Positions 37,296-50,327 of a stretch of DNA of 64,000 nucleotides are shown piece by piece. The position numbers were made by a program, and so were the translations under genes. This DNA comes from a virus: IMG/VR virus record IMGVR_UViG_3300035199_001057, positions 25,131 to 89,130 of that record. One strand, written 5' to 3'. The notes below the pieces were generated by a model. The model saw only the letters and a program-made list of their open reading frames with translations, was not told the origin of the DNA and made no database searches. The first letter of the stretch is position 1, and each line of letters starts with the position of its first letter.

Positions 37296-38642
37296 TTATT
37301 CTCCGGCGCTTTGAATTGATTTTATATTGGCACCAATTGGAGTAGACGTCGATTGTTTCTCTAGCTCTCTCATATCTCCAAAACCACCGACCTGTGAAGA
37401 ATCTTCCTGCCGCTCACACAGAAGTAAATCATATTTAGTTTTAAAATAAGCCTGTTGCGATTTCAGTTCAATATTGGTGAAATGCTCCGTATACCAAAAG
37501 TTGTTGGAGTACTCGTCCGCAAGCTCCCAGTCCACATCTTTGTGGGCCACTGGGTCGTAAAAATTAGTTCCCGGATAAGGGCACAAAATGGTGAACCCTA
37601 CGACATCCGGCTTAATTTCATCGATAAGTTGCTCTGTTAACAGGAGATCTTCGCGAGTCTCGTTGGGCATTCCAAATAGGAAAAAGCCGCGGCGCTCGAC
37701 ACCATATTTTTTGGCCCATTCAAAAACATTACGTATAGTTTTAGTTTTAAGACCTTTGCCGATTTGCTTTAATATTCTATCGCTTCCACTTTCGCATCCA
37801 ATGTTCACCTGATGACACTGAGATTTTTTAAGCCACTTGAACATCTCCTCGCTGGCGAAGCTCGCGTGAATCAAGCACTCCCATTCTGTGGTGATTCCTC
37901 TTTTGATCTTCTCCTTACAAAACTCGATTACAAAGTTAGCAGAAATATCGAAAGTGGCGTCAACAAATTTAAAATAATTCAAGTCCAATTGCTCGATTAC
38001 GTGTTCGATTTCATCGCACATTTCACTGACATCTCGTGACCTAATAGGATTGTTCCTCTTGTGAAATCGACCCGAGATAATTCTTTCCGCGCAAAAAGCG
38101 CAATTGACCGGGCAAACTCGGTTACATTGAAAAGATGCGATCCGCTTGCCATTCATTGACTCACACAGATCTACTGTGCGGTGGTTTTTAATGACTTCTC
38201 GATCAGGCCATGGCAATTCTTGCATTGGGGGTTTTGTTCCCGGGATAATGGGATCCGTGAAATTTCCACTTACGAGTTGAAAGAAAGATTCTTCGCCTTC
38301 ACCTAGTATAACATGGTCAATAGCGTCATGAGAAATACACTCTTCTGGAAGCGCCGTGGGGTGATAACCTCCAACCACTGTGCGTGTTTGGGGGCTTTTT
38401 TCCTTGATCATTTGCGCCAGACGCAATGCGTGAGGCCATGCGGGAGAGGTACATGAAAATCCAACAACGTGAGCGTCCGCGCATGCTTCAATAATAGTTT
38501 CGTCCGTATCAAAATTACCTTGATAACACTGGAGGTCGAGATCTCCCACATAATGTTTTTTAAGATAAGAGGCTATAAAGCCTAGGCCAATTGGCTCCCA
38601 TATATTCTCATAATAAGGTTGTACTAATATTACTTTTTTCAT
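37296..38642 (-). CDS. Cobalamin-binding radical SAM enzyme (class B methyltransferase-like)
   Basis: PIGLGFIASYL, VGFS, GGYHPT, GEGE, CPVNCAFC, GCESGS, GMPNET. Confidence 0.92.
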   Translation of the reverse strand: MKKVILVQPYYENIWEPIGLGFIASYLKKHYVGDLDLQCYQGNFDTDETIIEACADAHVVGFSCTSPAWPHALRLAQMIKEKSPQTRTVVGGYHPTALPEECISHDAIDHVILGEGEESFFQLVSGNFTDPIIPGTKPPMQELPWPDREVIKNHRTVDLCESMNGKRIASFQCNRVCPVNCAFCAERIISGRFHKRNNPIRSRDVSEMCDEIEHVIEQLDLNYFKFVDATFDISANFVIEFCKEKIKRGITTEWECLIHASFASEEMFKWLKKSQCHQVNIGCESGSDRILKQIGKGLKTKTIRNVFEWAKKYGVERRGFFLFGMPNETREDLLLTEQLIDEIKPDVVGFTILCPYPGTNFYDPVAHKDVDWELADEYSNNFWYTEHFTNIELKSQQAYFKTKYDLLLCERQEDSSQVGGFGDMRELEKQSTSTPIGANIKSIQSAGE

Positions 38643-39274
38643 CTGTTTGCCTCGGTATACACTTTATACTTAGAGAGATCTTGATATTCTATAGCCAAAT
38701 CTTCATTATCGTCTTTTATGCCCAGCATCAATGTGGCGCCCTTTGCTGCTATCTCAGGAAGCATATAATAATTCCAACCAAGCATGTCAAATTTTTCTTC
38801 TAAATGGCCGAGACCTTCGCGGCGGCCAAAATATGAGGCTCTTATGAACCATTCATAAGCATCCTTATTATCAGTCAATATCATTCCTCCTTTGCCACAC
38901 TTTAAAAACTTATTAGGGCCGCTAAAAGATAAACAATGGAATTGGCCCGGTATATACATATTTTTTTTAAAGGTTAGCGCGCTGTCCCAAATAGGAAAGG
39001 GCTCTAATTGATATTGACCCTTTAACTTTTTACCTATAATCGCATGGTGTTCTTGATCAAATTTAACCTTATTCCCGGCATGAATAATAGCACATGGCAC
39101 AGACATAAAAGTTCTTGCCGGGATGGTGATCTCTTCACCTTCTATTTTTAAATATTTCATACAAAGAAATAAAGCGTTGGTCGCATTATCAACCGCTACA
39201 GCATAGGGCGCACCGCTATATTCAGCTACGATCTCTTCAAACATTCTTATAACTTTATAGGGATTGTGTTTCAT
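38639..39274 (-). CDS. DegT/DnrJ/EryC1-family sugar aminotransferase (short form)
   Basis: AVDNATNAL, TFMSV, WDSA, SFSGPNKFLKCGKGGMI, GWNY. Confidence 0.85.
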   Translation of the reverse strand: MKHNPYKVIRMFEEIVAEYSGAPYAVAVDNATNALFLCMKYLKIEGEEITIPARTFMSVPCAIIHAGNKVKFDQEHHAIIGKKLKGQYQLEPFPIWDSALTFKKNMYIPGQFHCLSFSGPNKFLKCGKGGMILTDNKDAYEWFIRASYFGRREGLGHLEEKFDMLGWNYYMLPEIAAKGATLMLGIKDDNEDLAIEYQDLSKYKVYTEANR

Positions 39275-39337: not shown

Positions 39338-41050
39338 CTAAAAATCCCACTTTTTAAAATTTTCATAAACATATTGAGGCGCCGGGCGCCATTCGTATTC
39401 TCCCAGAAACAAAACAGGGGTATTGTGAGGGTTCCAATTTTCTTCATATCGTTGCGCATCGGACTTTTTCGACCATACCACGTGGGGGCAACCGCACAAC
39501 GATGCCAAATGCATTGGACCAGAAGAGGGGCCAATAGCTGCGCAGGCGTTTGAAAGTAGTGCTACGGTTTCCTCAAGTGGGATGTCGCGACAGTCTTTAG
39601 TACCCTCGATATGAAAAGCCTGCGCCGTCGTGCCAATGGACACAACACTATAACCGTCCGCGAGAAGAAGACCAACAAGTTCGCTCCAATTGTCGACCGA
39701 CCAGTTATCATCTTTACGTAACTCTCTCGCGCGGGCGTGAATTATAACAGTCTTGGAAGATTCTTCCCCCAATTTCTCTTGAAATTTCACATAGTTAGGG
39801 ACAATCAGGTGTTTGCTAAAGGGCTGTGGTTCTGTGAAGTGGGTATAAGGAGGGTTACCTACGCGTTTTGGCGCAGCCCAGGTGATATTCCACCCATCAT
39901 ACTCTTCGAATATCGCTTGAAACGTATCGCGATTGAGCTTGTGATCATGCATGAAAAAGGAATCCGCAAGACCGCCTGTTGCCGCATACCCAATAAAACG
40001 AGTCGCAAAATCTTTATATAGATACTCAGATGTGGGGCGCGCAATACAGACGGTTTCGTCGTAATGTTGCGACAGTTCGCGTATATACGCCTGCCACGCA
40101 AACAATTCCCAGCCAAACTCCCCTATCCAAGGCCCCGCAATCAAAACCTTGGGCTTTTGTACTTGAAAAGCTTTCTTTTCTAGCTGCTCTTCGTAATGTT
40201 TCACCACTCGCACAGCCCATTGATCACGCGTATACTTTTGTACTTCCTGATGTCCGGCTGTACTAATTCGCTGGCGCTCTTCTGGATGTTCTAAATAATA
40301 GTCAATTTTCGCGTTTAAATCGTCAATATCTTCAAAAATAACAAGATGTTCGCCATCTTGAAAGGTTTTTTCGCGACCTTCCCAATCGTCGGATAAAACA
40401 AACCCTTTGGCTCCCAAAAGCTTATAAATCCTGTCAGAAGCACCGGCAGTCGTACAAAAATTTAAATTAATCTTGCTGCGGCTAGCAATTTCTGAGTGTT
40501 TTTCGCCAAAAGCATTTGATATGACTTCTACACCGGCAGTCACTTGTTCGATTTTTCTTCGACGTTCTCCATAGAGATTCCCAATGAATGACACATCAAT
40601 ATCTTCCTCCAAATCCTTTGGGAACTCTAGATCCGAATCAAAACCATCAGGCACTAAAAACCCATGAGGGTTGTATTTCTTTGCTTCCTGAAGTACATTC
40701 TCTTTGTCACAACAAAAATAATCGCAATTTTTAGTTTTTTCAATAAATTCCGGGGTATTATAGGTTACGAGAGGGTCCGGGAACCAATAGCATAGCGCTG
40801 TCATTGAGCGACATATTTTAAAAACCTTAAGAGCGACGCCCGTGGCCTTGGCAAAGATAACCAAATCAGGCTTTTCTTCTTTTACCGTATTTACTATTTC
40901 ATCGTTACAAGCTGCGTATCCTAGCGCCTCTTGGCGGTGCGGGGTGCTATAAGGGATAACGGTGTGTCCTAGCTTCTGTAATCCCCGAAATTGAGAGGTA
41001 TTAGAGGATACTCCCTCGTTGTCGAACCTAGCTGCGTATAGTATTTTCAT
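39338..41050 (-). CDS. Two-domain glycosyltransferase: CgeB/GT4-like + GT9 (heptosyltransferase-like)
   Basis: DVSFIG, SKINLN, RIYKLLGAKGFVLSD, YYLEHPEERQRI; then NWSVDNW..LV, IGPSSGPMHLASLCGCP. Confidence 0.85.
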   Translation of the reverse strand: MKILYAARFDNEGVSSNTSQFRGLQKLGHTVIPYSTPHRQEALGYAACNDEIVNTVKEEKPDLVIFAKATGVALKVFKICRSMTALCYWFPDPLVTYNTPEFIEKTKNCDYFCCDKENVLQEAKKYNPHGFLVPDGFDSDLEFPKDLEEDIDVSFIGNLYGERRRKIEQVTAGVEVISNAFGEKHSEIASRSKINLNFCTTAGASDRIYKLLGAKGFVLSDDWEGREKTFQDGEHLVIFEDIDDLNAKIDYYLEHPEERQRISTAGHQEVQKYTRDQWAVRVVKHYEEQLEKKAFQVQKPKVLIAGPWIGEFGWELFAWQAYIRELSQHYDETVCIARPTSEYLYKDFATRFIGYAATGGLADSFFMHDHKLNRDTFQAIFEEYDGWNITWAAPKRVGNPPYTHFTEPQPFSKHLIVPNYVKFQEKLGEESSKTVIIHARARELRKDDNWSVDNWSELVGLLLADGYSVVSIGTTAQAFHIEGTKDCRDIPLEETVALLSNACAAIGPSSGPMHLASLCGCPHVVWSKKSDAQRYEENWNPHNTPVLFLGEYEWRPAPQYVYENFKKWDF

Positions 41051-41367
41051 TTTTCGAAAAACTCCCCGTCGTTAATTGCTTTGTCGTCGATGTAAAAATC
41101 AGCGGCCGGTTTCCCCAGCATTAGCTTGTGGAACTGAACCCCCCACTCTCTCAATTGCTGATAAGTGAAATCATATAAGAGCCGATAAGATTCTAATTCA
41201 TTCTGATTGGTGCGCCCCATGCCGCGGGCCGTGAGCATGATAATAGTATGACCAGCATCATAAAGGGAGTTTACCCTTTGGATGCGATCCCGGTGAGGTG
41301 TGGACTTCTCATAATCGCTTCCTTCGGTGGCGCAAATTGTTCCATCAATATCAAACACATACGTCAT
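41047..41367 (-). CDS. Small HAD phosphatase (capsule-biosynthesis phosphatase type)
   Basis: FDIDGTIC, LTARG, GKPAADFYIDDKA; ATG at 41367 overlaps transaldolase stop. Confidence 0.85.
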   Translation of the reverse strand: MTYVFDIDGTICATEGSDYEKSTPHRDRIQRVNSLYDAGHTIIMLTARGMGRTNQNELESYRLLYDFTYQQLREWGVQFHKLMLGKPAADFYIDDKAINDGEFFEK

Positions 41368-42032
41368 TATTCTATCCAATGAGAGAAATCTTTTAAAAAC
41401 CCTTCGACGGATTCATCGGTTTTGGGATGCTTAGTCGCCGCTACCAAAACTTTATAACCCGCAGTGACAATATGCGCACCGTTCGCCCATGCGTCTTCGA
41501 CATCATAAGCATTGCGAATGCTGCCGGCAATAATTTCACAATTTAAATTATTAATATTAATAACTTGACGCGTACGTTGAAGAACCTTAGCTGGGTTTCC
41601 TTGAACATCCAAAAGGCGATTGTAAAATAAAGATACATAGCGCGCCCCAGCATGCGCGGCCAACTGTAACTGTGTTGCTGAGAAACAACACGTACAATTA
41701 ACTTCTATGCCCGCTTCCGTTAAGTCGTGTACAACTTGGAGTTCCTCATAGCCAATGGGGATTTTAATATTAAGATTGGAATACCCAATTTTTTCTTTCA
41801 TTTCAAAGGCTTGGTGGAGCATCGCGGAAGGCTCCTGCGCAAAAACTTCTGCGCTCAGCGGAACATTTCCATACGTGCTACATAAAAACGCGATCTTTTT
41901 AATGTGCTCAAAGAAGTCTGCTTTAGGCTCTTTGGCTAACAATGAAGGGTTGGTTGTCACCCCGCGAATCACTCCCTTTTTAAGAGCGTCTTCAATCTCA
42001 ACTAAATTTGCGGTGTCTAAAAAGTATTTCAT
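41367..42032 (-). CDS. Transaldolase (TalC/Fsa family)
   Basis: FLDTANL, GVTTNPSL, IKIP, NCTCCFS, YVSLFYNR, IIAGSIR, HPKTD. Confidence 0.92.
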   Translation of the reverse strand: MKYFLDTANLVEIEDALKKGVIRGVTTNPSLLAKEPKADFFEHIKKIAFLCSTYGNVPLSAEVFAQEPSAMLHQAFEMKEKIGYSNLNIKIPIGYEELQVVHDLTEAGIEVNCTCCFSATQLQLAAHAGARYVSLFYNRLLDVQGNPAKVLQRTRQVININNLNCEIIAGSIRNAYDVEDAWANGAHIVTAGYKVLVAATKHPKTDESVEGFLKDFSHWIE

Positions 42033-42454
42033 TCGGTATCCTCCGTGTGTACATATGTGGTGCCATCCTCAACAATATGAGAATCGCCGTCGTCATCGCG
42101 TGTTGAGGTTTCAATTATTACACAATCTGTTACAGCCATGCGCATATGCATGAGGCCGACAGGAATGTGAAAAAGATCCCCCTCGTTTAAAATCAATGAA
42201 GTATTCTTTGCGCGTCCAATGCGCATACCTACCTTGAGAATCCCACGTTCAATATAATAAGATTCTTCTTTTTTAACGTGATATTCCAAACTGCTTTGTG
42301 TCCCTTTGCGCATAAAGATTCGCTTTACAGTATAATCGGGACCCTGAGCTAATGTCCTCATGTCCCCCCAATATTTCTCAACCACAGGAAGAGATGGGGC
42401 TTTCATGGGAACGTTTTGAATTCCATAGAGAATGTCGGTGCCCTTATTGGCCAT
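42029..42454 (-). CDS. Cupin-domain protein (mannose-6-phosphate isomerase type II-like)
   Basis: VEKYWG, SSLEYHVKKEE, IPVGLMHM, IETST. Confidence 0.8.
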   Translation of the reverse strand: MANKGTDILYGIQNVPMKAPSLPVVEKYWGDMRTLAQGPDYTVKRIFMRKGTQSSLEYHVKKEESYYIERGILKVGMRIGRAKNTSLILNEGDLFHIPVGLMHMRMAVTDCVIIETSTRDDDGDSHIVEDGTTYVHTEDTE

Positions 42455-43139
42455 AATATTTTTTATCTCCATGTTTGCGCAAAAAATGTTTGTCTAGCAA
42501 TGCTGAATCACAGGTTACAGTTCTATTATAGCGCATTGGGCGCGTTAATACCAGAGTTTTATACGCCATTTCTGCGATATTTTCCAAAACAATGGCGCAC
42601 TCAAGCGCTTCTTCCATTGAACTCCCCCACACAAACACTCCATGTGCCGGCGAAAGAGCCGCTTTCACCGACATGGGTGAAATATTTCTTGTAGTAAAAT
42701 GGTCTATAATTTTCAAACCTGTATTCTTCTCATAGTCCGTTTGGATTTCTTCTTCCGTCAAGTCTTCCACCACTGGAATAGGGCCATAAAAATAGTCAGC
42801 ATGGGTAGTGCCAAAGCATGGAATGTCCAACTTGGCCTGGGCAAAAATAGTACAATACTTGGAATGAGTGTGTACTATGCTATTGATTGCGGGAAACGCG
42901 TTATACAGGGCCAAGTGAGTGGGAGTATCCACCGATGGCTTTTTACCTTTCAGGTGGCGACCGGTCTTCAGATCCACTGTCGCTATATCCCTAGTCATTA
43001 GTTCCTCAAAAGGCACTCCCGATGGCTTGATGTACATGCGGTCGCCCGATTTAGTTCGACAACTGGCGTTCCCCCAAGTTAAAATGACGAGTCCTTCGTT
43101 AATAAGGGCCTGATTTGTTTTAATTAATTTTTTTAACAT
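42444..43139 (-). CDS. araD: L-ribulose-5-phosphate 4-epimerase (class II aldolase family)
   Basis: TWGNAS, IKPSGV, PSVDTPTH, VHTHS, GTTHADYFYGPIP, HGVFVWG, LLDKHFLRKHG..KYYGQ. Confidence 0.93.
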   Translation of the reverse strand: MLKKLIKTNQALINEGLVILTWGNASCRTKSGDRMYIKPSGVPFEELMTRDIATVDLKTGRHLKGKKPSVDTPTHLALYNAFPAINSIVHTHSKYCTIFAQAKLDIPCFGTTHADYFYGPIPVVEDLTEEEIQTDYEKNTGLKIIDHFTTRNISPMSVKAALSPAHGVFVWGSSMEEALECAIVLENIAEMAYKTLVLTRPMRYNRTVTCDSALLDKHFLRKHGDKKYYGQ

Positions 43140-44061
43140 AGTCTCTAAACGTTTCGTAAGCAGGAGTACCGCTGCCGCGTTGCTGGACCGCCAAACCTGC
43201 CCATATATTACTCAGCTTCAGGGCCTCGACCGGGCGGCGTTTGTAATCAGTCATGCTGAGGAGGGCTAAAAAACTGTCGCCTGCTCCACATGTATCTACG
43301 ACGCGTATGGAATCAAGGGCCGAAACGTCCCATATCCGGTCTAAAACTAGTTGGGCGCCCTCGTCACCGCGGGTTATACATAGATTAGCATTGAATAGCT
43401 TTTGCAACTCGCGTACATTGGCCGTGTGAATTGCGCAATTGTCGGTGAACTCCGCTTGGTTGAGACAAATCAAATCAACGTCTTTGTACAATAAATGATT
43501 AGAGGTGTGCGTTGAAGTTTGAGAACTCGCTATAATGGGCGCAGTGCTATTTTCCTTCACGATCCTCACAATTGGCGCGCTTAAAAGGCCGCCGCGATAA
43601 TCAACCAATACTACCCTATCATACTCTTCTTCCAGCGCACGTTGGAGCACTTCTATATTGTGCGCAGATAACTCCGCTAGGCCACCGCCTCTGTTCACCT
43701 GAAGATGTTTATAGGCAGTGTCGCCATGCGCAATCCAATAGCGGCTTTTAACAATATTTTCATATTCTTCTTCATATAACCCTATGAAATTAAGGCGCTC
43801 CTCTTTGTGCTCTTCCAGGGTGTGCCGATATTCGTCATTACCCACGAGAGTTACAAATGTACATTGTGCGCCAAGGGCTAATATATTTTTTACTACGTTG
43901 TACGCGCCACCAAAAGAGTATTCCTTCGAAGTTTCGACCGCCTTAAGAGTGGGGCTTTCCAAAGAAAGCCCAGCCGCGTCCGCATGAATAGTGGCATCAA
44001 GGATGCTGTCTCCAATGACCAAAACGTGAACATTTTTGAAGGATTTAATTATTTCTTCCAT
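43120..44061 (-). CDS. PfkB-family sugar kinase, HldE/RfaE domain I-like
   Basis: VLVIGDSILD, LSLESP, GGAYNV, LVDYRGG, TRGDEG, DTCGAGD. Confidence 0.88.
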   Translation of the reverse strand: MEEIIKSFKNVHVLVIGDSILDATIHADAAGLSLESPTLKAVETSKEYSFGGAYNVVKNILALGAQCTFVTLVGNDEYRHTLEEHKEERLNFIGLYEEEYENIVKSRYWIAHGDTAYKHLQVNRGGGLAELSAHNIEVLQRALEEEYDRVVLVDYRGGLLSAPIVRIVKENSTAPIIASSQTSTHTSNHLLYKDVDLICLNQAEFTDNCAIHTANVRELQKLFNANLCITRGDEGAQLVLDRIWDVSALDSIRVVDTCGAGDSFLALLSMTDYKRRPVEALKLSNIWAGLAVQQRGSGTPAYETFRDYVKKIN

Positions 44062-44921
44062 GTCTCTTTAGACCGCGCTTTTTTAATAATTTCAGTGGTA
44101 GAGTAATTGTCGACAAAAGGGCAGATCTTTATTTCAATATCCGCGGATACATTGTCTCGTTCGCGCACTTCGTCGGCTGTCCATTCCCCCCCTTTTACGA
44201 GGATGTCTGGTTGAATAGATTCGCGCGTATCGTGTGGATCCACATTATCAAATATAATAACCTGATCCACTGGCGCCAAGGACTCTAAGACTTTTTTGCG
44301 ATCGGACTCTGTGTTAATAGGCCTTGATGGGCCTTTAAATTCTCGTACCGCTGCGTCCGAATTAATGCCAACCACGAGCTTGTTGCCCAAGCTCTTCGCG
44401 AACCTCAATAGTTCAATATGACCCGTATGAATGATATCAAACACACCGTTGGTAAAAACAATCTTTTCCCCTTTGTTTTTAGAAAGCTTTTCTATTCGCT
44501 TAACATGGCGTCCCTCCCCAAAGTCGGTGCCGAACCATGAATCCAAAATATGTTGCACTTGTTGATAGGGAGTGAGCCAGCTTCCGAGGCAAAGTACATT
44601 AGCATTATTATGCTCGCGGCACTTAGGGGCTGTAAACTCGTTGTGTATTAAAGCAGCGCGTACTGTTTCATGTCTATTGGCCGCAATGCTCATGCCCACG
44701 CCAGTGCCACAAATTAAAATACCTTTGGCAACCTCTCCATCCGTGATAATGTGAGAAAGTTGATCCGCGTAGTCAACATAATCTACTTTTATATCTTCTT
44801 GGTGGGGGCCCAAGTCTAGGGGAACAATGCCGTGCTCTTTTAGATACTTCTTAATTTGGGCTTTGAGGGTAAACCCGTTGTGGTCAGAGGCAATAACAAC
44901 TATGGATGGAGCTTCTTTCAT
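44049..44921 (-). CDS. Fusion of RpiB/LacAB sugar-phosphate isomerase and HldE/RfaE domain II nucleotidyltransferase
   Basis: ASDHNG, CGTGVGMSIAANR, HNNANVL, GRHVKR; then FTNGVFDIIHTGH, VGINSD, KGPSRP, PDILVKG, YSTT; ATG at 44921. Confidence 0.92.
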   Translation of the reverse strand: MKEAPSIVVIASDHNGFTLKAQIKKYLKEHGIVPLDLGPHQEDIKVDYVDYADQLSHIITDGEVAKGILICGTGVGMSIAANRHETVRAALIHNEFTAPKCREHNNANVLCLGSWLTPYQQVQHILDSWFGTDFGEGRHVKRIEKLSKNKGEKIVFTNGVFDIIHTGHIELLRFAKSLGNKLVVGINSDAAVREFKGPSRPINTESDRKKVLESLAPVDQVIIFDNVDPHDTRESIQPDILVKGGEWTADEVRERDNVSADIEIKICPFVDNYSTTEIIKKARSKETWKK

Positions 44922-44925
44922 TATA

Positions 44926-45768
44926 TTATTTCTCTTGTAGTAATGCCATAAACAATTCATATGCGCGCCCGCGTCGGGAAATAAGATCCGCGAGCAACTC
45001 TTCGCCACTCAACGTAAAACATTCCTCGCTGGCGAAGCCTAGCATTTTTTTCTTTGTAAGAAGTTTACAGTTAAGCATCTTGGCTTCCGCAGCTAGGCGA
45101 CAAAAAGTCTCCAACACTTGAGGAAAGAAAACCAACACTTTATACTGCGCTAGTTGCGCTAAAAGTTCTTTTTCTCCGCAAGGTTCGATATCATCAAAAG
45201 AGATATTGTTTTTTTTACAATACTCCGCCGCCTGGTAATATCCCTTAACAGGGTTCCTAGATTTAAGTATAGCATATTCTCTAGTTTTTGCAACCCCCAT
45301 GAGCGACTGGATGTATTTTAGCTTCGAATCCTCCCAGAGACTACAACCGATATTATATACGTTAGTAATTTGAAGGTTGTTCTCCATTATTGTTTTACAT
45401 ATATCGCTCAAGACCACCACTCCATGAGCATTTCTATAAAAATCTTGATTGATCAACTGTTCGGCGGGTACAACAAAATCGCGAAAAACGCTCGGATCTC
45501 GGGTTCTTACATATTTGTGATCATGTTCATAGATAATATATTTTTTTTGACGAAGCTCTTGTTTAAAATATTCGGGGAGTTGCGTGAAATTTCCAAGTAT
45601 AAATGTGTCATACTGAGAGAGGGTTTTGTCTGTGACGGTTGCGCATTGAATCTTGTCTATATGAATATTCTGAAAAGCAAGGTGGTTAATTAAGACGCTG
45701 TCATTTGATTCACCGCCCCCAAGATATTGGTCTCGGAAAATGTCGGCCACAAAAGCTACTTTTTTCAC
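44926..45768 (-). CDS. Putative glycosyltransferase (GT-B-like)
   Basis: GGGESND, YEHDHKY, ETFCRLAAEAKMLNC; GTG start overlaps previous TGA. Confidence 0.65.
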   Translation of the reverse strand: MKKVAFVADIFRDQYLGGGESNDSVLINHLAFQNIHIDKIQCATVTDKTLSQYDTFILGNFTQLPEYFKQELRQKKYIIYEHDHKYVRTRDPSVFRDFVVPAEQLINQDFYRNAHGVVVLSDICKTIMENNLQITNVYNIGCSLWEDSKLKYIQSLMGVAKTREYAILKSRNPVKGYYQAAEYCKKNNISFDDIEPCGEKELLAQLAQYKVLVFFPQVLETFCRLAAEAKMLNCKLLTKKKMLGFASEECFTLSGEELLADLISRRGRAYELFMALLQEK

Positions 45769-47015
45769 GCGATTTCTACTTCGTCTAAGGTGCGCCCCCA
45801 TGCCACATCTGTTCGATGTCTCTCGATAACCGCCGCCATCTTCGCATACTGGTTTTCCTCAGAAAAGTTCTTTAGGATCCACTTTTGAAGCTTTTTGGCT
45901 TGAGACTTATAGCGGCCATGGTCTTTGTATACTTCTCGCAGGCGCATCTTGTAAGAACCTTGCTGGGGAAAACACCACATGGAGTCTTTTTGAATCACCC
46001 CTTCCCATACAGCCTCGGGCTGGACAGGGCCAATGTCACACCCAACGGTGGCAAAATGGGGGCGCATCTTCTCGCGGCCTTTCTTGTCTTTTTTAGGCAT
46101 ACAGAGAAAATCTAAGTATCCACTCCACTCAGGCGCTAGAACCGGAAGCCCGGAATAAGCGGCCTCGAAATGAGGGAGGCCAAAACCTTCGCCATGGGCC
46201 AGGGAAACAAAGGCCTTAATTGTGGGAGAGATATAAAGGGAATGGATCTCCTCTTCAGACATATCTCCATGTAACAGGTATACCTTGCATTGTCGAGCAG
46301 GATAGGGAGAGAGTAGTTTCCGAAGTGTGTTCATTGCCATTCTTCGATCAAGCAGGGATCCGCCCTTCGAAAAGGTTTTAACAACGAGGCCAACATCAGG
46401 ATTGTCAATAAATTCCTCCACGAACCAGCGGACTGTATTTTCCACATTTTTTCGAGGGCCCCACTGGGCCATGGTCAAGAAGTTAAACTTTGTCGTTAAA
46501 GATAAGTCCAAGTCGACCTTCTTATAATTTTTTACAGGGTAGTGTACCACTTCTACGTTTGGATTACATCTCAAAGTAATCTGCTGTCCGGTAGTTTTGT
46601 GGGTGCCCTCGTATTCAGTGCCAACTAAGCTATTTCTTCCATGAGAAGAAACCGTTATGACCTCATCCATCATGTTTGCGCGTTCGAGCCATACAGGTGC
46701 CACTTTGGTAGTTTCTATTCCTGCGGTTACACCAATATTAATAGGGGCAATACGCTCCCACTCATTTGGAATTCCCACTTGGATGCTCATATCAATAGGC
46801 AACTGTTGTTGTTGAAGTTGAACCGTTTTGCCAACCAAGGAGTCAAGCCATTGTCGTTCTTCGGTGTCTTCCCAGACCCAACTAGATTGTCCCCACTCAG
46901 TAGGGGCAAAATATATATCTATTCCTTCGACTTTGCGCAATGCGCGCAATACAAACCGAGCATGTTCGCCGTACCCGGTACGAGTCAGCGCTGGGCCTTT
47001 TACTAATACTTTCAT
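45765..47015 (-). CDS. Glycosyltransferase family 4
   Basis: TGYGEHAR, RKN, HGEGFGLPHFEAAYSGLPV, WSGYLDF. Confidence 0.9.
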   Translation of the reverse strand: MKVLVKGPALTRTGYGEHARFVLRALRKVEGIDIYFAPTEWGQSSWVWEDTEERQWLDSLVGKTVQLQQQQLPIDMSIQVGIPNEWERIAPINIGVTAGIETTKVAPVWLERANMMDEVITVSSHGRNSLVGTEYEGTHKTTGQQITLRCNPNVEVVHYPVKNYKKVDLDLSLTTKFNFLTMAQWGPRKNVENTVRWFVEEFIDNPDVGLVVKTFSKGGSLLDRRMAMNTLRKLLSPYPARQCKVYLLHGDMSEEEIHSLYISPTIKAFVSLAHGEGFGLPHFEAAYSGLPVLAPEWSGYLDFLCMPKKDKKGREKMRPHFATVGCDIGPVQPEAVWEGVIQKDSMWCFPQQGSYKMRLREVYKDHGRYKSQAKKLQKWILKNFSEENQYAKMAAVIERHRTDVAWGRTLDEVEIA

Positions 47016-48280
47016 TAGGCTACCTCCTCAACTGTCCAAGCCTGGGGTGCATTTCGCGTCTCCCAGGATCCTAGTTTCTCATGAATATCTGTAAGAATCT
47101 TATCCCAATTGCTACAGAAATCTTCAAAATTATAGTTCTTTTGTACATGCGCTCTGCCGGCGGCGCCTAGGGCTGCTCGTTCTTCTGTGGTTTTATTATA
47201 CATTTCCACAAGAGCGTCAACTACTACTTCTTCTGACAAGCGATCTTCGTAAATATAGGGGATCGATTGGGATCCAATAATTGCCTTCGAAGTTGGCTCT
47301 AGACCAACGCCGAACCAATTTTCACCGTCGGTTACTTGCTCTTGAAGGCCGCCTGTCATAGTAACAATAATCGGAGTCTCGCATGCTAGCGACTCTAAGG
47401 TTGCGAGGCCAAAACCTTCGGCATCGGATACGTTAATGGTACAGTCAGCTGAATTATACATCAATGCTAGCCTGTGCTGGTCAACCTTCTGTTGACTAAA
47501 TAGCACCTCTCCATTATCAAGCCCCAAATTGTTGATGATTGCCTCTAGATCTTGACCATGGTTATCTTTAACCTCGGTATGCATAACTAAGCATGCCTTG
47601 TCTTTCCCTACTTTTTCTAAAAACTTCCCAAACCAAAAGATCAAAGACCCGCTCTGTTTTCGTCGAGCGTTCCGATTATTCCAAAAGAAAACCATCTTGT
47701 CCGGTGAGTAGTGTTCTCCCAGCGCGCTTTTCTTAAACTCTTCGACGTGCTCTTTTTCGAGGCGGGAGAACACGCTTGTATCAACTGAGTGCGGAACGTA
47801 CCGGCAGTCTACTGTTGGGGATACGGTCTTTACAACGTCCTCGGTTACCTTCGAAATCGCCAAAACCACGTCATTGGAATCATAAAAAACTTTATTAAAA
47901 TCCGGATAAGGATAATTGTCCCATACGTGATAGTAGACCATGGGCATGTGAGGGCGGATTTCATTTTCCATCTCCCACAGCCAGCCCCAGAATCGCGGAT
48001 CGGTCATAAACCAGAGGATATCAGGTTTGTGTGAGCGCATAATTGATCGAATCATCTCCTGAGTACCGTACCCGTCGACGGGATAGATAACCCAATCGTC
48101 TTCAAACTCTTTAGTTTTAATGGGATCATAATTAGGATGCTTCACAGCACCTCCTAAAGACACCACTTCATATTTACCTGTCCTAAGAATCGATTCAATC
48201 ATGTATTTGGTTTGTGTGCCTACCCCGGATGGAGAAAGCGGCATATCGCCAAGTGTTAAAATTTTTATTTTTTTATCCAT
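47015..48280 (-). CDS. Glycosyltransferase family 4
   Basis: SGVG, NRNARRK, EGFGLATLESLACETPII, TGGLQEQ; ATG at 48280. Confidence 0.92.
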   Translation of the reverse strand: MDKKIKILTLGDMPLSPSGVGTQTKYMIESILRTGKYEVVSLGGAVKHPNYDPIKTKEFEDDWVIYPVDGYGTQEMIRSIMRSHKPDILWFMTDPRFWGWLWEMENEIRPHMPMVYYHVWDNYPYPDFNKVFYDSNDVVLAISKVTEDVVKTVSPTVDCRYVPHSVDTSVFSRLEKEHVEEFKKSALGEHYSPDKMVFFWNNRNARRKQSGSLIFWFGKFLEKVGKDKACLVMHTEVKDNHGQDLEAIINNLGLDNGEVLFSQQKVDQHRLALMYNSADCTINVSDAEGFGLATLESLACETPIIVTMTGGLQEQVTDGENWFGVGLEPTSKAIIGSQSIPYIYEDRLSEEVVVDALVEMYNKTTEERAALGAAGRAHVQKNYNFEDFCSNWDKILTDIHEKLGSWETRNAPQAWTVEEVA

Positions 48281-48287
48281 TCGTCCC

Positions 48288-49088
48288 TCATGTACAATGT
48301 TCAGTTTTATAGTATTCGCATATGCCAAATCTGCCATGACAAGAAAGCTTGTTTTTAACAAAATTGGACTTCCTAATATTATAAAGCGCTTTGTTTAACA
48401 ATTTAAGAGCGTTTTGAATTTTTTTTGCTCCATTGGAAACTTCAAAGATCTCAACGAGATTCGATTTTGCTGTTCTTTTTAATAAAGCAAAATGGGTCTG
48501 TACATCTTTTAAAGCCATGTTATGCTTGGCGCACCAAAAATGCTTATACAGTGTTAGTTGATATGTAACCATTTTGTCTGTCTTACGCCGATTATCCCAA
48601 CCCCATGAACAGGTCTTCCAATCAATAATATGATACTTGTCATCTTTGGTTTTAATAATCAGGTCTATAAAGCCTTTAAATTTAAGATCTGTTTCCGGCA
48701 TTGATTCGTATAGTTCTTCTTCAACCGATATCAATTCAAAAGTCCCAAAAGTTTTTTTCAGCCCGGGCAAAATATAATCCGTCAAAGTCTCTCCTTGCAA
48801 GCGCATGCTAGCAATGAGATCTGCTCTAAACTCAATCGTGGTGTCCTCTGATTTAATCTGTTGAAGGTTTTTTAAGAACTCCTTTTGAAACATTTCTTTA
48901 GGATCGAAAGCAGGGACCGAGGCACCACTGTGTTCTTTAACCATATTTTCGCATACAGTGTGGAGGGCTGTACCAAAAGCAGTAAACTCGTTTCCCTTGA
49001 ACTCTTTACGTTTTTCAATATAATTGAGCTTATGCTTCCATGGGCATGTCACCCATTCTTTTAATGCGGAATATGATATGTGTGTCAT
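48288..49088 (-). CDS. PD-(D/E)XK nuclease, Cas4/AddB-like
   Basis: ISYS.L..W..CP, GTALH, GFIDL, IIDWKT, QL.LY, C-terminal C...CEY...C. Confidence 0.88.
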   Translation of the reverse strand: MTHISYSALKEWVTCPWKHKLNYIEKRKEFKGNEFTAFGTALHTVCENMVKEHSGASVPAFDPKEMFQKEFLKNLQQIKSEDTTIEFRADLIASMRLQGETLTDYILPGLKKTFGTFELISVEEELYESMPETDLKFKGFIDLIIKTKDDKYHIIDWKTCSWGWDNRRKTDKMVTYQLTLYKHFWCAKHNMALKDVQTHFALLKRTAKSNLVEIFEVSNGAKKIQNALKLLNKALYNIRKSNFVKNKLSCHGRFGICEYYKTEHCT

Positions 49089-49098
49089 GGGCTGCTCT

Positions 49099-49383
49099 CT
49101 AGCTACGTGGAGTTTTCTTAGAGGTTGAAGATGGAGGGGGAGAAGCTTTAGTTTTGACCTTTAGCGCAAAGATCCAGATCCCCGTTCTTTCTTTTTGAGT
49201 GGCGCCGTTATAAGCAGCCCCTTTTTTTAAAAGAGAAGCACCCTTGTAACGCGGGTGGTGCTTGGCCACCCAGCCAATAACATCTCGGGTGGAAATACTA
49301 GTTGAAGGCTCATGTAAGCGCGCTGCGTGGATAGTAGCGCTAACATATAGCCTTCCTTCTTTCTCTTTTGCTTTAAACTTCAT
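49099..49383 (-). CDS. Hypothetical basic protein
   Basis: 94 aa, AAGGA RBS, overlaps upstream gene. Confidence 0.6.
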   Translation of the reverse strand: MKFKAKEKEGRLYVSATIHAARLHEPSTSISTRDVIGWVAKHHPRYKGASLLKKGAAYNGATQKERTGIWIFALKVKTKASPPPSSTSKKTPRS

Positions 49384-50068
49384 TTTTTTCTTCCTTCTTG
49401 GTATTAACCAAGGCTTGAATTTTATTATATAATACTGGGCTAATGTCTTTCAACTTGCGCTGGTCTCCTAAAAAATAATGTTCGAACCCGTTAGCCCAAT
49501 ATTCTTTGAGGGCTGTAATCGCATAAGGAGAGTAAAACAACTCCGCGGTTAATCCCCTCAAGGAATCATATCCTAAATCTCTATAAAGGTACATATCAAA
49601 GCTTTTATCATATTCAGGGTTTAAAAAATATACCATGTTAGCGCGCTTTGAAGCGGGAAGTAAGTGATACAAGTGCTTCCTTTTTGCCAGGAATTCTCTC
49701 TCTAGACTTTCATCTCCGTAAATATCATCATAATTTCGCGCCTCCAGGGAGTGTGCGATTTCATGAACCACATCGTCTACCATATCTTCAGCATCGTCTT
49801 GATGATTGGAAATATATATAGTTCCGTCCTTATAGAGGGCATTAAAATGCTTGCCATTTTCAGAGAAGTCGTCAAATTCTCCTATATATATATTGTCAAA
49901 ATTATCAGCTAAAGATTGGGGAATTTTAGCCCCTAGGGTTGCCAATACCAAGTCTAGATCCACCTCCGACGAGAGAGGTTCCAGCACATAAACCGGTTTT
50001 CCAAAGACTGTGTTTTCCTTGAACTCCCGTTTGATCTTTTCATTGTTATCCTGAATGTGTTTTTTCAT
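49373..50068 (-). CDS. Putative zincin-like metallopeptidase
   Basis: VVHEIAHSLE (HExxH) and EYWANGFE; likely ATG at 50068. Confidence 0.65.
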   Translation of the reverse strand: MKKHIQDNNEKIKREFKENTVFGKPVYVLEPLSSEVDLDLVLATLGAKIPQSLADNFDNIYIGEFDDFSENGKHFNALYKDGTIYISNHQDDAEDMVDDVVHEIAHSLEARNYDDIYGDESLEREFLAKRKHLYHLLPASKRANMVYFLNPEYDKSFDMYLYRDLGYDSLRGLTAELFYSPYAITALKEYWANGFEHYFLGDQRKLKDISPVLYNKIQALVNTKKEEKNEV

Positions 50069-50327
50069 TATATTCTCTGAAAAGTTTTTCGCCTTCTTCA
50101 ACATCTGCCAATGCTTGTTGATAGCCGCGAATAAAGTTCTCCTCTGCGACAACCAAAAGAAACTCAGGAAACTCCTCAGCTATAGTCTTAATTATCATCT
50201 CGACGTTAACTTCCCCATTCTCTGGTTCTGTCTTTTCTCCCACATACGAAACGAGCCACTTTTTTAGCTCGGTATCCCCTTCCACTTTCTTTAAAAGGTC
50301 CGGGTTCTCATCATTATTATAACTCAT
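50046..50327 (-). CDS. Hypothetical protein
   Basis: GGAG RBS before ATG at 50327. Confidence 0.7.
   Translation of the reverse strand: MSYNNDENPDLLKKVEGDTELKKWLVSYVGEKTEPENGEVNVEMIIKTIAEEFPEFLLVVAEENFIRGYQQALADVEEGEKLFREYNEKTHSG

Follow-up and report, generated by a model that had tools for sequence, protein, structure and literature searches.

The DNA considered here is the last 64 kb (positions 25,131-89,130) of an 89-kb IMG/VR virus record, IMGVR_UViG_3300035199_001057, which amounts to about 27% of a genome by the estimate of CheckV; this whole 64-kb stretch is called the window below, and coordinates refer to it. Its minus strand carries at 39338-44921 a cassette of seven genes, which overlap or abut in the open reading frame (ORF) list, with 13, 20, 29, 4, 13 and 4 bases shared between successive genes when the longest ORFs are taken. 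In this order they are predicted to encode an RpiB::HldE-domain-II nucleotidyltransferase fusion (44049-44921), a PfkB-family sugar-phosphate kinase resembling HldE domain I (43120-44061), an AraD-type L-ribulose-5-phosphate 4-epimerase (42444-43139), a small metal-binding cupin (42029-42472), a short transaldolase (TAL) of TalC/FSA size (41367-42032), a small HAD phosphatase (41047-41379) and a two-module glycosyltransferase (39338-41050). A preliminary description of the window had placed this overlapping block here, and every gene of it was found on that strand at those coordinates. Families were assigned by scans with Pfam, NCBIfam and PHROG and by profile comparison with PDB. Read together, the assignments suggest that the cassette is most likely a heptose/octose-type sugar-nucleotide pathway in which the front end and the isomerase are new.

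The fusion protein, of 290 aa counted from M29, joins an RpiB domain (PF02502, E 7e-48) to a nucleotidyltransferase domain (PF01467, E 1e-20). Its longest ORF spans 44049-45008 and begins with GTG; the best 120 homologues listed all have both domains and are mostly about 288 aa long, so the start was set at M29 (44921). The RpiB part exceeds the equivalog cut-off of TIGR01120 (149.5 versus 138.65 bits), and its Asp-His, Cys-Gly-Thr, His-Asn and Arg-His-x-x-Arg positions, which we take to be catalytic or phosphate-binding, are invariant among the 23 fusions aligned. To judge by these residues, the domain is a canonical pentose-5-phosphate enzyme. Two other specificities were set aside, those of an erythrulose-4-phosphate isomerase (DerI, 82 versus 240 bits) and of a galactose-6-phosphate isomerase (LacA/B, about 81 bits). 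The nucleotidyltransferase part scores 157.8 bits with TIGR02199, under the cut-off of 181.5, and matches PDB entry 5x9q ('Putative cytidylyltransferase'), presumably an HldC, with E 1e-28. Triple fusions occur among the homologues: P0002 has RpiB and two nucleotidyltransferase domains, and P0019 has the arrangement transferase-RpiB-transferase. Among deposited phage records, 145 match one half of the fusion only, and none covers 80% of the query. The kinase (PF00294, E 6e-21) finds its best family in HldE domain I (TIGR02198, E 1e-34), at 120 bits versus a cut-off of 345; ribokinase gives only 52 bits, and there is a weak PDB match to the heptose-7-phosphate kinase 4e84. The enzyme is predicted to phosphorylate the anomeric position.

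The epimerase exceeds the cut-off of NF006047 (269.4 versus 257 bits) and aligns with E. coli AraD (1JDI) with E 8e-57. Positions D76, H95, H97, H171, D120, Y229, T116, N28, K42, S44, G45 and S74 of 1JDI, which we assume to be the zinc or metal ligands, the catalytic acid/base residues and the phosphate pocket, are kept, and Ser75 is replaced by Val. By this conservation AraD, too, appears to be a canonical pentose-5-phosphate enzyme. Action on C4 of an octulose was considered and set aside, since the conserved phosphate pocket fits a two-carbon aldehyde phosphate. A collection of 50,697 phage records holds 23 AraD matches, none in a cultured phage genome and all in bacterial or unannotated fragments; the 15 matches listed are Salmonella genome contigs, unannotated records labelled as Salmonella, Escherichia or Listeria phage, or unannotated gut fragments.

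The TAL (PF00923, E 6e-42) matches the transaldolase 3r8r of B. subtilis with E 3e-43. Its Schiff-base Lys90 as well as Glu62 and Asp6 are invariant, the phosphate-binding Ser-x-Arg is kept, and it is the only TAL in the 89-kb record. The cupin is recognized by Cupin_1 (28 bits) and by MannoseP_isomer, the C-terminal family of mannose-6-phosphate isomerase (24.9 bits), and has a His/Glu/His metal site whose residues (H65, E70 and H109) do not vary among 24 homologues, which are of two types. Its PDB profile matches are generic cupins with oxalate decarboxylase on top, and mannose-6-phosphate isomerase 7zvm follows with E 4e-4; the nearest Atlas clusters are viral cupins assigned in part to Pfam families of mannose-6-phosphate isomerase or lyxose isomerase, which gives a lead only. 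We infer that the cupin acts as a ketose/aldose phosphate isomerase in the place of GmhA. The HAD protein of 110 aa matches TIGR01689 (E 6e-12, far under its cut-off), phrog_1238 (E 9e-30) and, in PDB, the 'capsule biosynthesis protein' 9iqw (E 1e-14) and 1xpj (E 5e-9). It is thus EcbF/BcbF-, 1xpj- or 9iqw-like and not of the GmhB type, HAD-IIIA reaching 20.3 bits versus 44.6, and would remove the terminal phosphate of a sugar bisphosphate. The glycosyltransferase of 570 aa consists of an N-terminal PF13524 half (81 bits) and a weakly GT9-like C-terminal half, for which PF01075 gives 26.8 bits (cut-off 22) and TIGR02193 only 23.5 bits versus 185. No useful PDB sequence match was obtained for this protein. 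Elsewhere, as in L006, L012, L020 and L203, each half is encoded by a gene of its own. The transferase is the putative user of the pathway product.

Two enzymes familiar from ADP-heptose synthesis were not found. No gene of the 89-kb record matches the GmhA/SIS families TIGR00441, PF13580 and PF01380, nor does SIS_2 (PF13580) match anything in five related phage genomes, which measure 157-284 kb and of which four are at least 94% complete. The absence of a GmhA/SIS gene, noted earlier for the window, thus holds for the whole record and for near-complete relatives. HldD is not recognized either, as TIGR02197 passes its cut-off in none of five records scanned and only generic short-chain dehydrogenase/reductase (SDR) matches appear. 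An HldD-like SDR does lie a few kb from the cassette in two relatives, at G002:C1:150307-151059 and G003:C1:141526-142299 (108 and 143 bits, cut-off 274.6); at the corresponding place of the window there is no such gene.

The cassette is kept as a unit. With the fusion protein as query, eight IMG/VR loci were retrieved, in all eight of which the six-enzyme block is collinear at 32-68% protein identity, and the cupin retrieved 36 loci, every one with fusion, kinase, cupin and TAL. A TAL profile gave 79 loci, 63 of them with cassette genes, in three gene orders: fusion-kinase-AraD-cupin-TAL-HAD (type I, the order of the window), HAD-fusion-AraD-kinase-cupin-TAL (type II) and AraD-RpiB-kinase-TAL-cupin with an unfused RpiB (type III), the last followed after a few kb by HAD, a nucleotidyltransferase and a second kinase, with GT9 and PF13524 transferases nearby. 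After removal of identical copies, 59 distinct TALs remain, 47 of which are cassette-borne; RpiB and the kinase are found within 8 kb of all 47, and RpiB is fused or adjacent in every one of these distinct cassettes. The cupin is present in 48/48 cassette-bearing rows of one locus set and in 58/63 of the TAL-profile set, and the TAL in 46/48 rows, its place in the other two (L001 and L005) being cut by or lying beyond the contig end. These loci were fished with cassette genes, and the counts accordingly measure cohesion, not frequency in nature. Since RpiB is fused, the genes overlap and the set is preserved through three orders, TAL, RpiB and AraD are most unlikely to be chance neighbours. 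No description of this gene set was found in full-text literature searches; the main text of a pelagimyophage survey (PMC7029224) describes rfaE and glycosyltransferases in a host-recognition cluster, and transaldolase is not mentioned there.

The record studied is a fragment of a marine phage; the other carriers are dozens of uncultured T4-like marine phage contigs and also assemblies of Acidobacteria, Woesearchaeota and Saccharibacteria. All five related phage genomes have a T4-type gp23, one has psbA and psbD, and the single TAL of each is that of the cassette. The psbA/psbD-bearing T4-like cyanophage is G005, the 205-kb relative that holds L034 and L054; it has no separate talC. A clearly cellular locus is that of Acidobacteria bacterium SZAS-3 (G006; L217, on a 346-kb contig), where a cassette without AraD is accompanied by a second, divergently transcribed HldE-II-like transferase. 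All HldE-like genes of this assembly lie at the cassette locus, and its only GmhA-like gene (183.7 bits, below cut-off) stands alone beside two alpha-amylase genes; this gene content does not separate heptose from octose. The DNA of the cassette matches nothing in the 50,697 phage records. Among public marine metagenome runs, X1 has contigs covering the whole stretch; in X2 and X3, AraD, kinase and fusion are spanned by one contig of 2.4 kb per run, which differs by 46-48 substitutions and lacks indels, and parts of the stretch are uncovered in X2-X4. No RNA run is among the sequencing runs listed as holding the stretch.

AraD is the least constant member. It is present in 43 of the 47 distinct cassettes, and the cassettes without it need three changes on a 61-row TAL tree, which suggests that the gene was lost, or gained, repeatedly, with at least three losses. 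Cassettes without it include L021/L145 and the Acidobacteria locus L217. In types II and III and on one Acidobacteria contig its slot is taken by the other L-ribulose-5-phosphate epimerase subfamily, NF005123 (328 versus 251 bits in L057), and GT8 and GT10 transferases lie downstream of one AraD-less cassette. Repeated loss, replacement by NF005123 and differing transferases would fit AraD as a switch of side-chain stereochemistry, not as a core step.

The TAL of the cassette belongs to a lineage of its own. None of 502 phage TalC records reaches 60% identity to it, and the 25 rows listed give 30.6-41.4%. In the 61-row tree, all 47 cassette TALs fall on one side of a branch (99/91) and the TalC of P-SSM2 and Syn30, a Bacillaceae TAL and the remaining viral TALs on the other. 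In a 123-row tree, the cassette clade (96*) includes the TALs of Acidobacteria, Woesearchaeota and Saccharibacteria and is nested in a 71-row group (98*) with 48 of the cellular TALs described below and four viral ones; housekeeping TALs of Bacillota form a separate 23-row clade (99*) with cyanophage TalC, and two further groups of SIS-linked TALs are nearer to this latter clade. After a conserved YVS, cassette TALs read LFY[N/C]R, versus PFVGR in TalC. YVSLFY[N/C]R was rejected as a motif diagnostic of the cassette, as TALs of SIS operons have YVSLFW, YVSLFG or YVSLFY and then GR; at most, a YVSLF-type motif may mark the wider lineage of sugar-operon TALs.

The viral TALs nearest to the cassette clade are those of a different type of phage operon, found on contigs L183-L187, L192-L194 and L208. 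In it, genes for a GHMP kinase (HddA-like), an NTP-transferase (MurU/HddC-like) and an SIS isomerase (GmhA-like) precede TAL. An SDR gene is also part of it (for example L187:2779-6672), and in L183-L187 and L192-L194 the operon is situated immediately upstream of the portal gene. With a profile built from these TALs, 80 cellular loci (L300-L379) were retrieved from Methylomirabilota, Chloroflexota, Myxococcota, Verrucomicrobiota, Planctomycetota, Ignavibacteria, Zixibacteria, Omnitrophota and some archaea. An SIS gene is in the flanks of 65 of the 80, usually directly upstream of TAL. Flanking genes for a GHMP kinase were counted in 38 of the 80, for an NTP-transferase in 37, for an HldE-II-type transferase in 12 and for a PfkB kinase in 10; the only cupin belongs to a transferase-kinase-cupin-TAL locus of Saccharibacteria, and RpiB or AraD is found in none. 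TAL with a sugar-phosphate isomerase, often joined by a C1-type kinase and a nucleotidyltransferase, thus forms a widespread module. As TAL co-occurs with a GmhA-like SIS protein in these sister operons, it would be an extra step and not a substitute for GmhA.

Such a layout is known from lincomycin biosynthesis, where LmbR joins ribose-5-phosphate and a C3 unit from fructose-6-phosphate or sedoheptulose-7-phosphate into octulose-8-phosphate (PMC5854111). In the description of the GDP-octose route, the C8 isomerase LmbN, the predicted kinase LmbP, the phosphatase LmbK and the guanylyltransferase LmbO follow (PMC4351081 Table 2; PMC5854111). The analogy with LmbR, drawn in the preliminary description, gains comparative support from the sister operons of TAL, SIS isomerase, GHMP kinase and nucleotidyltransferase, which have the layout of LmbR/LmbN/LmbP/LmbO as given in PMC4351081. 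Three further claims made there have also stood: that the genes form one functional unit, now that the synteny search has found them collinear in 8/8 loci, with fusion, kinase, cupin and TAL together in 36/36, and kept through three gene orders; that RpiB is tied to the pathway, given its fusion or adjacency throughout the distinct cassettes; and that TAL is biosynthetic and not auxiliary, for which the phylogeny places it apart from TalC and housekeeping TALs and among those of sugar-activation operons. From its position in the trees and operons, the cassette TAL is best seen as a biosynthetic partner and not as a pentose-phosphate auxiliary gene of the TalC type.

We are confident that the genes together serve the synthesis of an ADP-activated higher sugar and that both TAL and RpiB have biosynthetic roles in this single pathway. 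As to the sugar itself, we lean, if not strongly, towards one with eight carbons, made from a pentose-5-phosphate and a C3 unit by way of octulose-8-phosphate and activated as ADP-octose. The order of steps and the substrates are inferred throughout. RpiB would convert a ketopentose-5-phosphate to an aldopentose-5-phosphate, for example ribulose-5-phosphate to ribose-5-phosphate, and AraD, where present, would convert xylulose-5-phosphate to L-ribulose-5-phosphate and so lead to an L-configured pentose-5-phosphate. TAL would transfer a dihydroxyacetone unit from fructose-6-phosphate or sedoheptulose-7-phosphate to the aldopentose-5-phosphate to give octulose-8-phosphate, as LmbR does, and the cupin would turn this ketose into the aldose octose-8-phosphate, the job of GmhA or LmbN. 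Phosphorylation at C1 by the HldE-I-like kinase would yield the 1,8-bisphosphate, from which the small HAD protein would take off the terminal phosphate; the HldE-II-like domain would convert the resulting octose-1-phosphate to ADP-octose, and the GT9-like half of the adjacent transferase would pass it on to an acceptor, probably a phage or host surface glycan. If protonation of C2 by RpiB occurs on the face that is used with the D-substrate, the acceptor made through AraD would be L-arabinose-5-phosphate, and only exocyclic carbons of the final sugar would be altered; AraD could then be regarded as an early-acting counterpart of HldD. The core module in cells that have neither RpiB nor AraD would draw ribose-5-phosphate from metabolism, as in Streptomyces.

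Several features suit such a route. Transaldolase requires an aldose (phosphate) as acceptor and releases a ketose (phosphate), and the cassette has exactly one such C-C-forming enzyme and two aldose/ketose isomerases, RpiB and, putatively, the cupin, which fits this chemistry of aldose in and ketose out. The phage lineage adds two pentose-5-phosphate enzymes to the core, and pentose-5-phosphate may for this reason be the input under phage control. Some phages (L006 and L019) carry the cassette side by side with a second, simpler transferase-kinase-cupin module, so its product should differ from that of the simpler one. Hexose and nonose products were considered and set aside. The preliminary description had proposed much the same course, with an L-pentose made by AraD and RpiB as its starting point. 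Its single unit, the lack of GmhA and the biosynthetic TAL and RpiB have held; the L-pentose step would be a variant at most, as AraD is not obligatory, being missing from 4/47 cassettes and lost at least three times.

The preference for an octose has to be weighed against a number of points, most of which concern a product of seven carbons. A core of TAL, isomerase, kinase and transferase would equally fit the joining of fructose-6-phosphate and erythrose-4-phosphate to sedoheptulose-7-phosphate and hence a heptose, and RpiB and TAL could raise sedoheptulose-7-phosphate through host transketolase. The cassette would then make ADP-heptose, with the cupin replacing GmhA on sedoheptulose-7-phosphate, TAL and RpiB only improving its supply, the kinase, HAD and nucleotidyltransferase acting as HldE-I, GmhB and HldE-II, and AraD as an accessory. 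This is doubtful, yet far from negligible. The kinase, the nucleotidyltransferase and the GT9 half score best with heptose-pathway families, and formation of sedoheptulose-7-phosphate is the textbook role of transaldolase. The S-CAM1 cyanophage has a transferase-kinase-HAD-cupin module without TAL, which shows that a ketose phosphate of the host can feed a route headed by a cupin, and most cellular relatives pair TAL with a GmhA-like SIS protein and none with RpiB. Indeed, RpiB is absent from all 80 cellular loci, from the alpha-type operons and from the beta-type Saccharibacteria locus L343 and is thus not needed for the core chemistry, just as AraD, missing from four of the 47 cassettes, is dispensable. 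The isomerase role of the cupin rests on weak family matches, the 123-row tree was made by a quick method, and LmbR is not among the tree rows. The heptose is ranked second mainly because it leaves AraD, present in 43/47 distinct cassettes in two paralogous subfamilies, without a role, and AraD is unable to make xylulose-5-phosphate from D-ribulose-5-phosphate. Moreover, sedoheptulose-7-phosphate is normal wherever transketolase works, and a dedicated, co-evolving TAL lineage is not obviously needed for it; phages with both modules would make the same sugar twice. To our knowledge, lincomycin has the only characterized nucleotide-sugar module with a TAL of its own, and its product is an octose.

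Two other explanations keep to pentose phosphates. The product could be a nucleoside diphosphate (NDP)-pentose such as ADP-linked L-arabinose or ribose, with AraD and RpiB, both pentose-5-phosphate enzymes, feeding the kinase, HAD and nucleotidyltransferase while TAL and the cupin are side players. A precedent is the NDP-arabinofuranose proposed for RB69 and DLP3, formed from ribulose-5-phosphate by an isomerase, a C1 kinase, an HAD phosphatase and a nucleotidyltransferase, and 1xpj, which the HAD of the cassette matches, is the structure given for the phosphatases in that account (PMC13326640). This is nevertheless improbable, since it finds no use for TAL and the cupin, both of which are rarely missing and co-evolve through three gene orders; minimal cellular modules have TAL without RpiB or AraD, and the isomerase, kinase and transferase families are unlike those of the Afh/RB69 set as described in PMC13326640. 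Still more remote is the notion that TAL, RpiB and AraD are ordinary auxiliary genes of the pentose-phosphate pathway beside an unrelated sugar-activation operon. Although talC is common in cyanophages, with 502 phage records matching, and one carrier genome (G005) is a psbA/psbD cyanophage, the fusion of RpiB to a nucleotidyltransferase, the overlapping genes and the survival of the set through three rearranged orders are hard to square with it, as are the separate clade of the TAL and the lack of an AraD match in cultured phage genomes.

With an octose kept as the preferred product, the cassette can be set beside known systems. It shares with the ADP-glycero-manno-heptose pathway a PfkB kinase and a cytidylyltransferase-fold transferase nearest to HldE domains I and II, a phosphatase step and an adjacent GT9-like transferase, whereas it has no GmhA/SIS protein and no HldD over cut-off, its HAD is not GmhB-type, its kinase and transferase are separate genes, the latter fused to RpiB, and TAL, AraD and the cupin are added; all its heptose-family scores stay under the equivalog cut-offs. 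With the GDP-octose pathway of lincomycin and celesticetin it has in common a dedicated TAL within a nucleotide-sugar cluster, with an isomerase, a kinase, a phosphatase and a nucleotidyltransferase for the later steps, as outlined in PMC4351081 and PMC5854111. It differs in that the isomerase is a cupin and not an SIS protein, the kinase is of the PfkB family, RpiB and AraD are added, the carriers are phages instead of an antibiotic cluster, and the transferase is HldE-II-like and not a GDP-forming NTP_transferase such as LmbO, so that the nucleotide is probably ADP rather than GDP. LmbP presumably belongs to another kinase class than PfkB. Cyanophage TalC is of the same short TAL/FSA-size fold family (PF00923, TIGR00875-like) and also comes from marine T4-like phages, but the cassette TAL lies in an overlapping operon and talC of P-SSM2 and Syn30, the two examined, among unrelated genes. 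The phage NDP-arabinofuranose route to DNA arabinosylation (RB69 gp51, gp52-53 and gp55; HY126 AfhE/AfhF) likewise has an isomerase, a C1 kinase, a 1xpj-like HAD and a nucleotidyltransferase and, like the cassette, draws on the pentose-phosphate pool (PMC13326640). As far as its description in PMC13326640 goes, it relies on an SIS arabinose-5-phosphate isomerase and on a MurU-like bifunctional transferase with an APH-like kinase, and has no TAL, cupin, RpiB or AraD. The module of cyanophage S-CAM1 has an HldE-II-like transferase (42% identity), a kinase, an HAD (51%) and a second-type cupin (34%), but lacks RpiB, AraD and TAL. New in the present analysis are the placement of the TAL in its lineage, the sister operons resembling the genes around LmbR, the existence of three gene orders, and the finding that AraD was lost repeatedly and has been replaced by a paralogue. 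In S-CAM1 (L011, NC_020837.1 176821-178569), the four genes have a carbamoyltransferase gene on one side and tail-fibre genes on the other; the annotations 'phosphoheptose isomerase' for the HAD and 'cysteine dioxygenase' for the cupin both look wrong.

A more general picture may be offered tentatively, as something we would sooner doubt than assert. TAL-initiated chain extension would be a widespread, unrecognized way to nucleotide-activated octoses in uncultured bacteria, archaea and marine T4-like phages, written in two enzyme 'dialects', one with an SIS isomerase, a GHMP kinase and an NTP-transferase, the other with a cupin, a PfkB kinase and an HldE-II-type transferase, and the LmbR route of lincomycin would be one special case. 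In phages, RpiB would feed ribose-5-phosphate, and AraD, as the counterpart of HldD, would switch the side chain to the L-configuration before the chain is assembled; the product would be ADP-L-erythro-D-manno-octose-like, and the GT9-like enzyme would put the sugar on the virion or host surface. Should the product be an octose, the cassette would represent the first nucleotide-octose pathway outside antibiotic biosynthesis and the first in viruses, and chain extension of the LmbR type would turn out to be a general means of diversifying glycans, used by environmental bacteria and archaea and by abundant phages of the ocean. Should it be a heptose, there would still be a GmhA-independent, cupin-based entry to ADP-heptose-like sugars, which are important in lipopolysaccharide, in protein heptosylation and for innate immune sensing. 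One class of phage genes, now annotated as 'transaldolase' or 'ribose-5-phosphate isomerase B' and read as pentose-phosphate auxiliary genes, would move to the genes of glycan biosynthesis.

The cassette is embedded in a large sugar island that encodes dehydratases of the GDP-mannose and dTDP-glucose types as well as a 2,3-dehydratase, together with a B12-radical SAM enzyme, a sulfotransferase-methyltransferase and two GT4-type glycosyltransferases. Genes for PhoH and a PD-(D/E)XK nuclease are found upstream. Adjoining the fusion gene, here and in many type I loci, is the minus-strand gene of a conserved 291-aa protein (44926-45801), which falls in no Pfam, NCBIfam or PHROG family and has no PDB match. 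The two GT4-type genes (45765-47015 and 47015-48361, minus strand; PF00534, phrog_2170) come next and are found upstream of the cassette in related loci too. Just downstream of the cassette is a DegT/DnrJ-type aminotransferase ORF (38639-39274, minus strand) of 211 aa only, whose family match is confined to two short stretches; it may be truncated or split. Another minus-strand ORF, of 259 aa at 49373-50152, resembles the anthrax lethal factor N/C-terminal domain (PF07737) over about 40 residues, with 25 bits versus a cut-off of 27.4, and this stretch may be a metalloprotease-like motif only.

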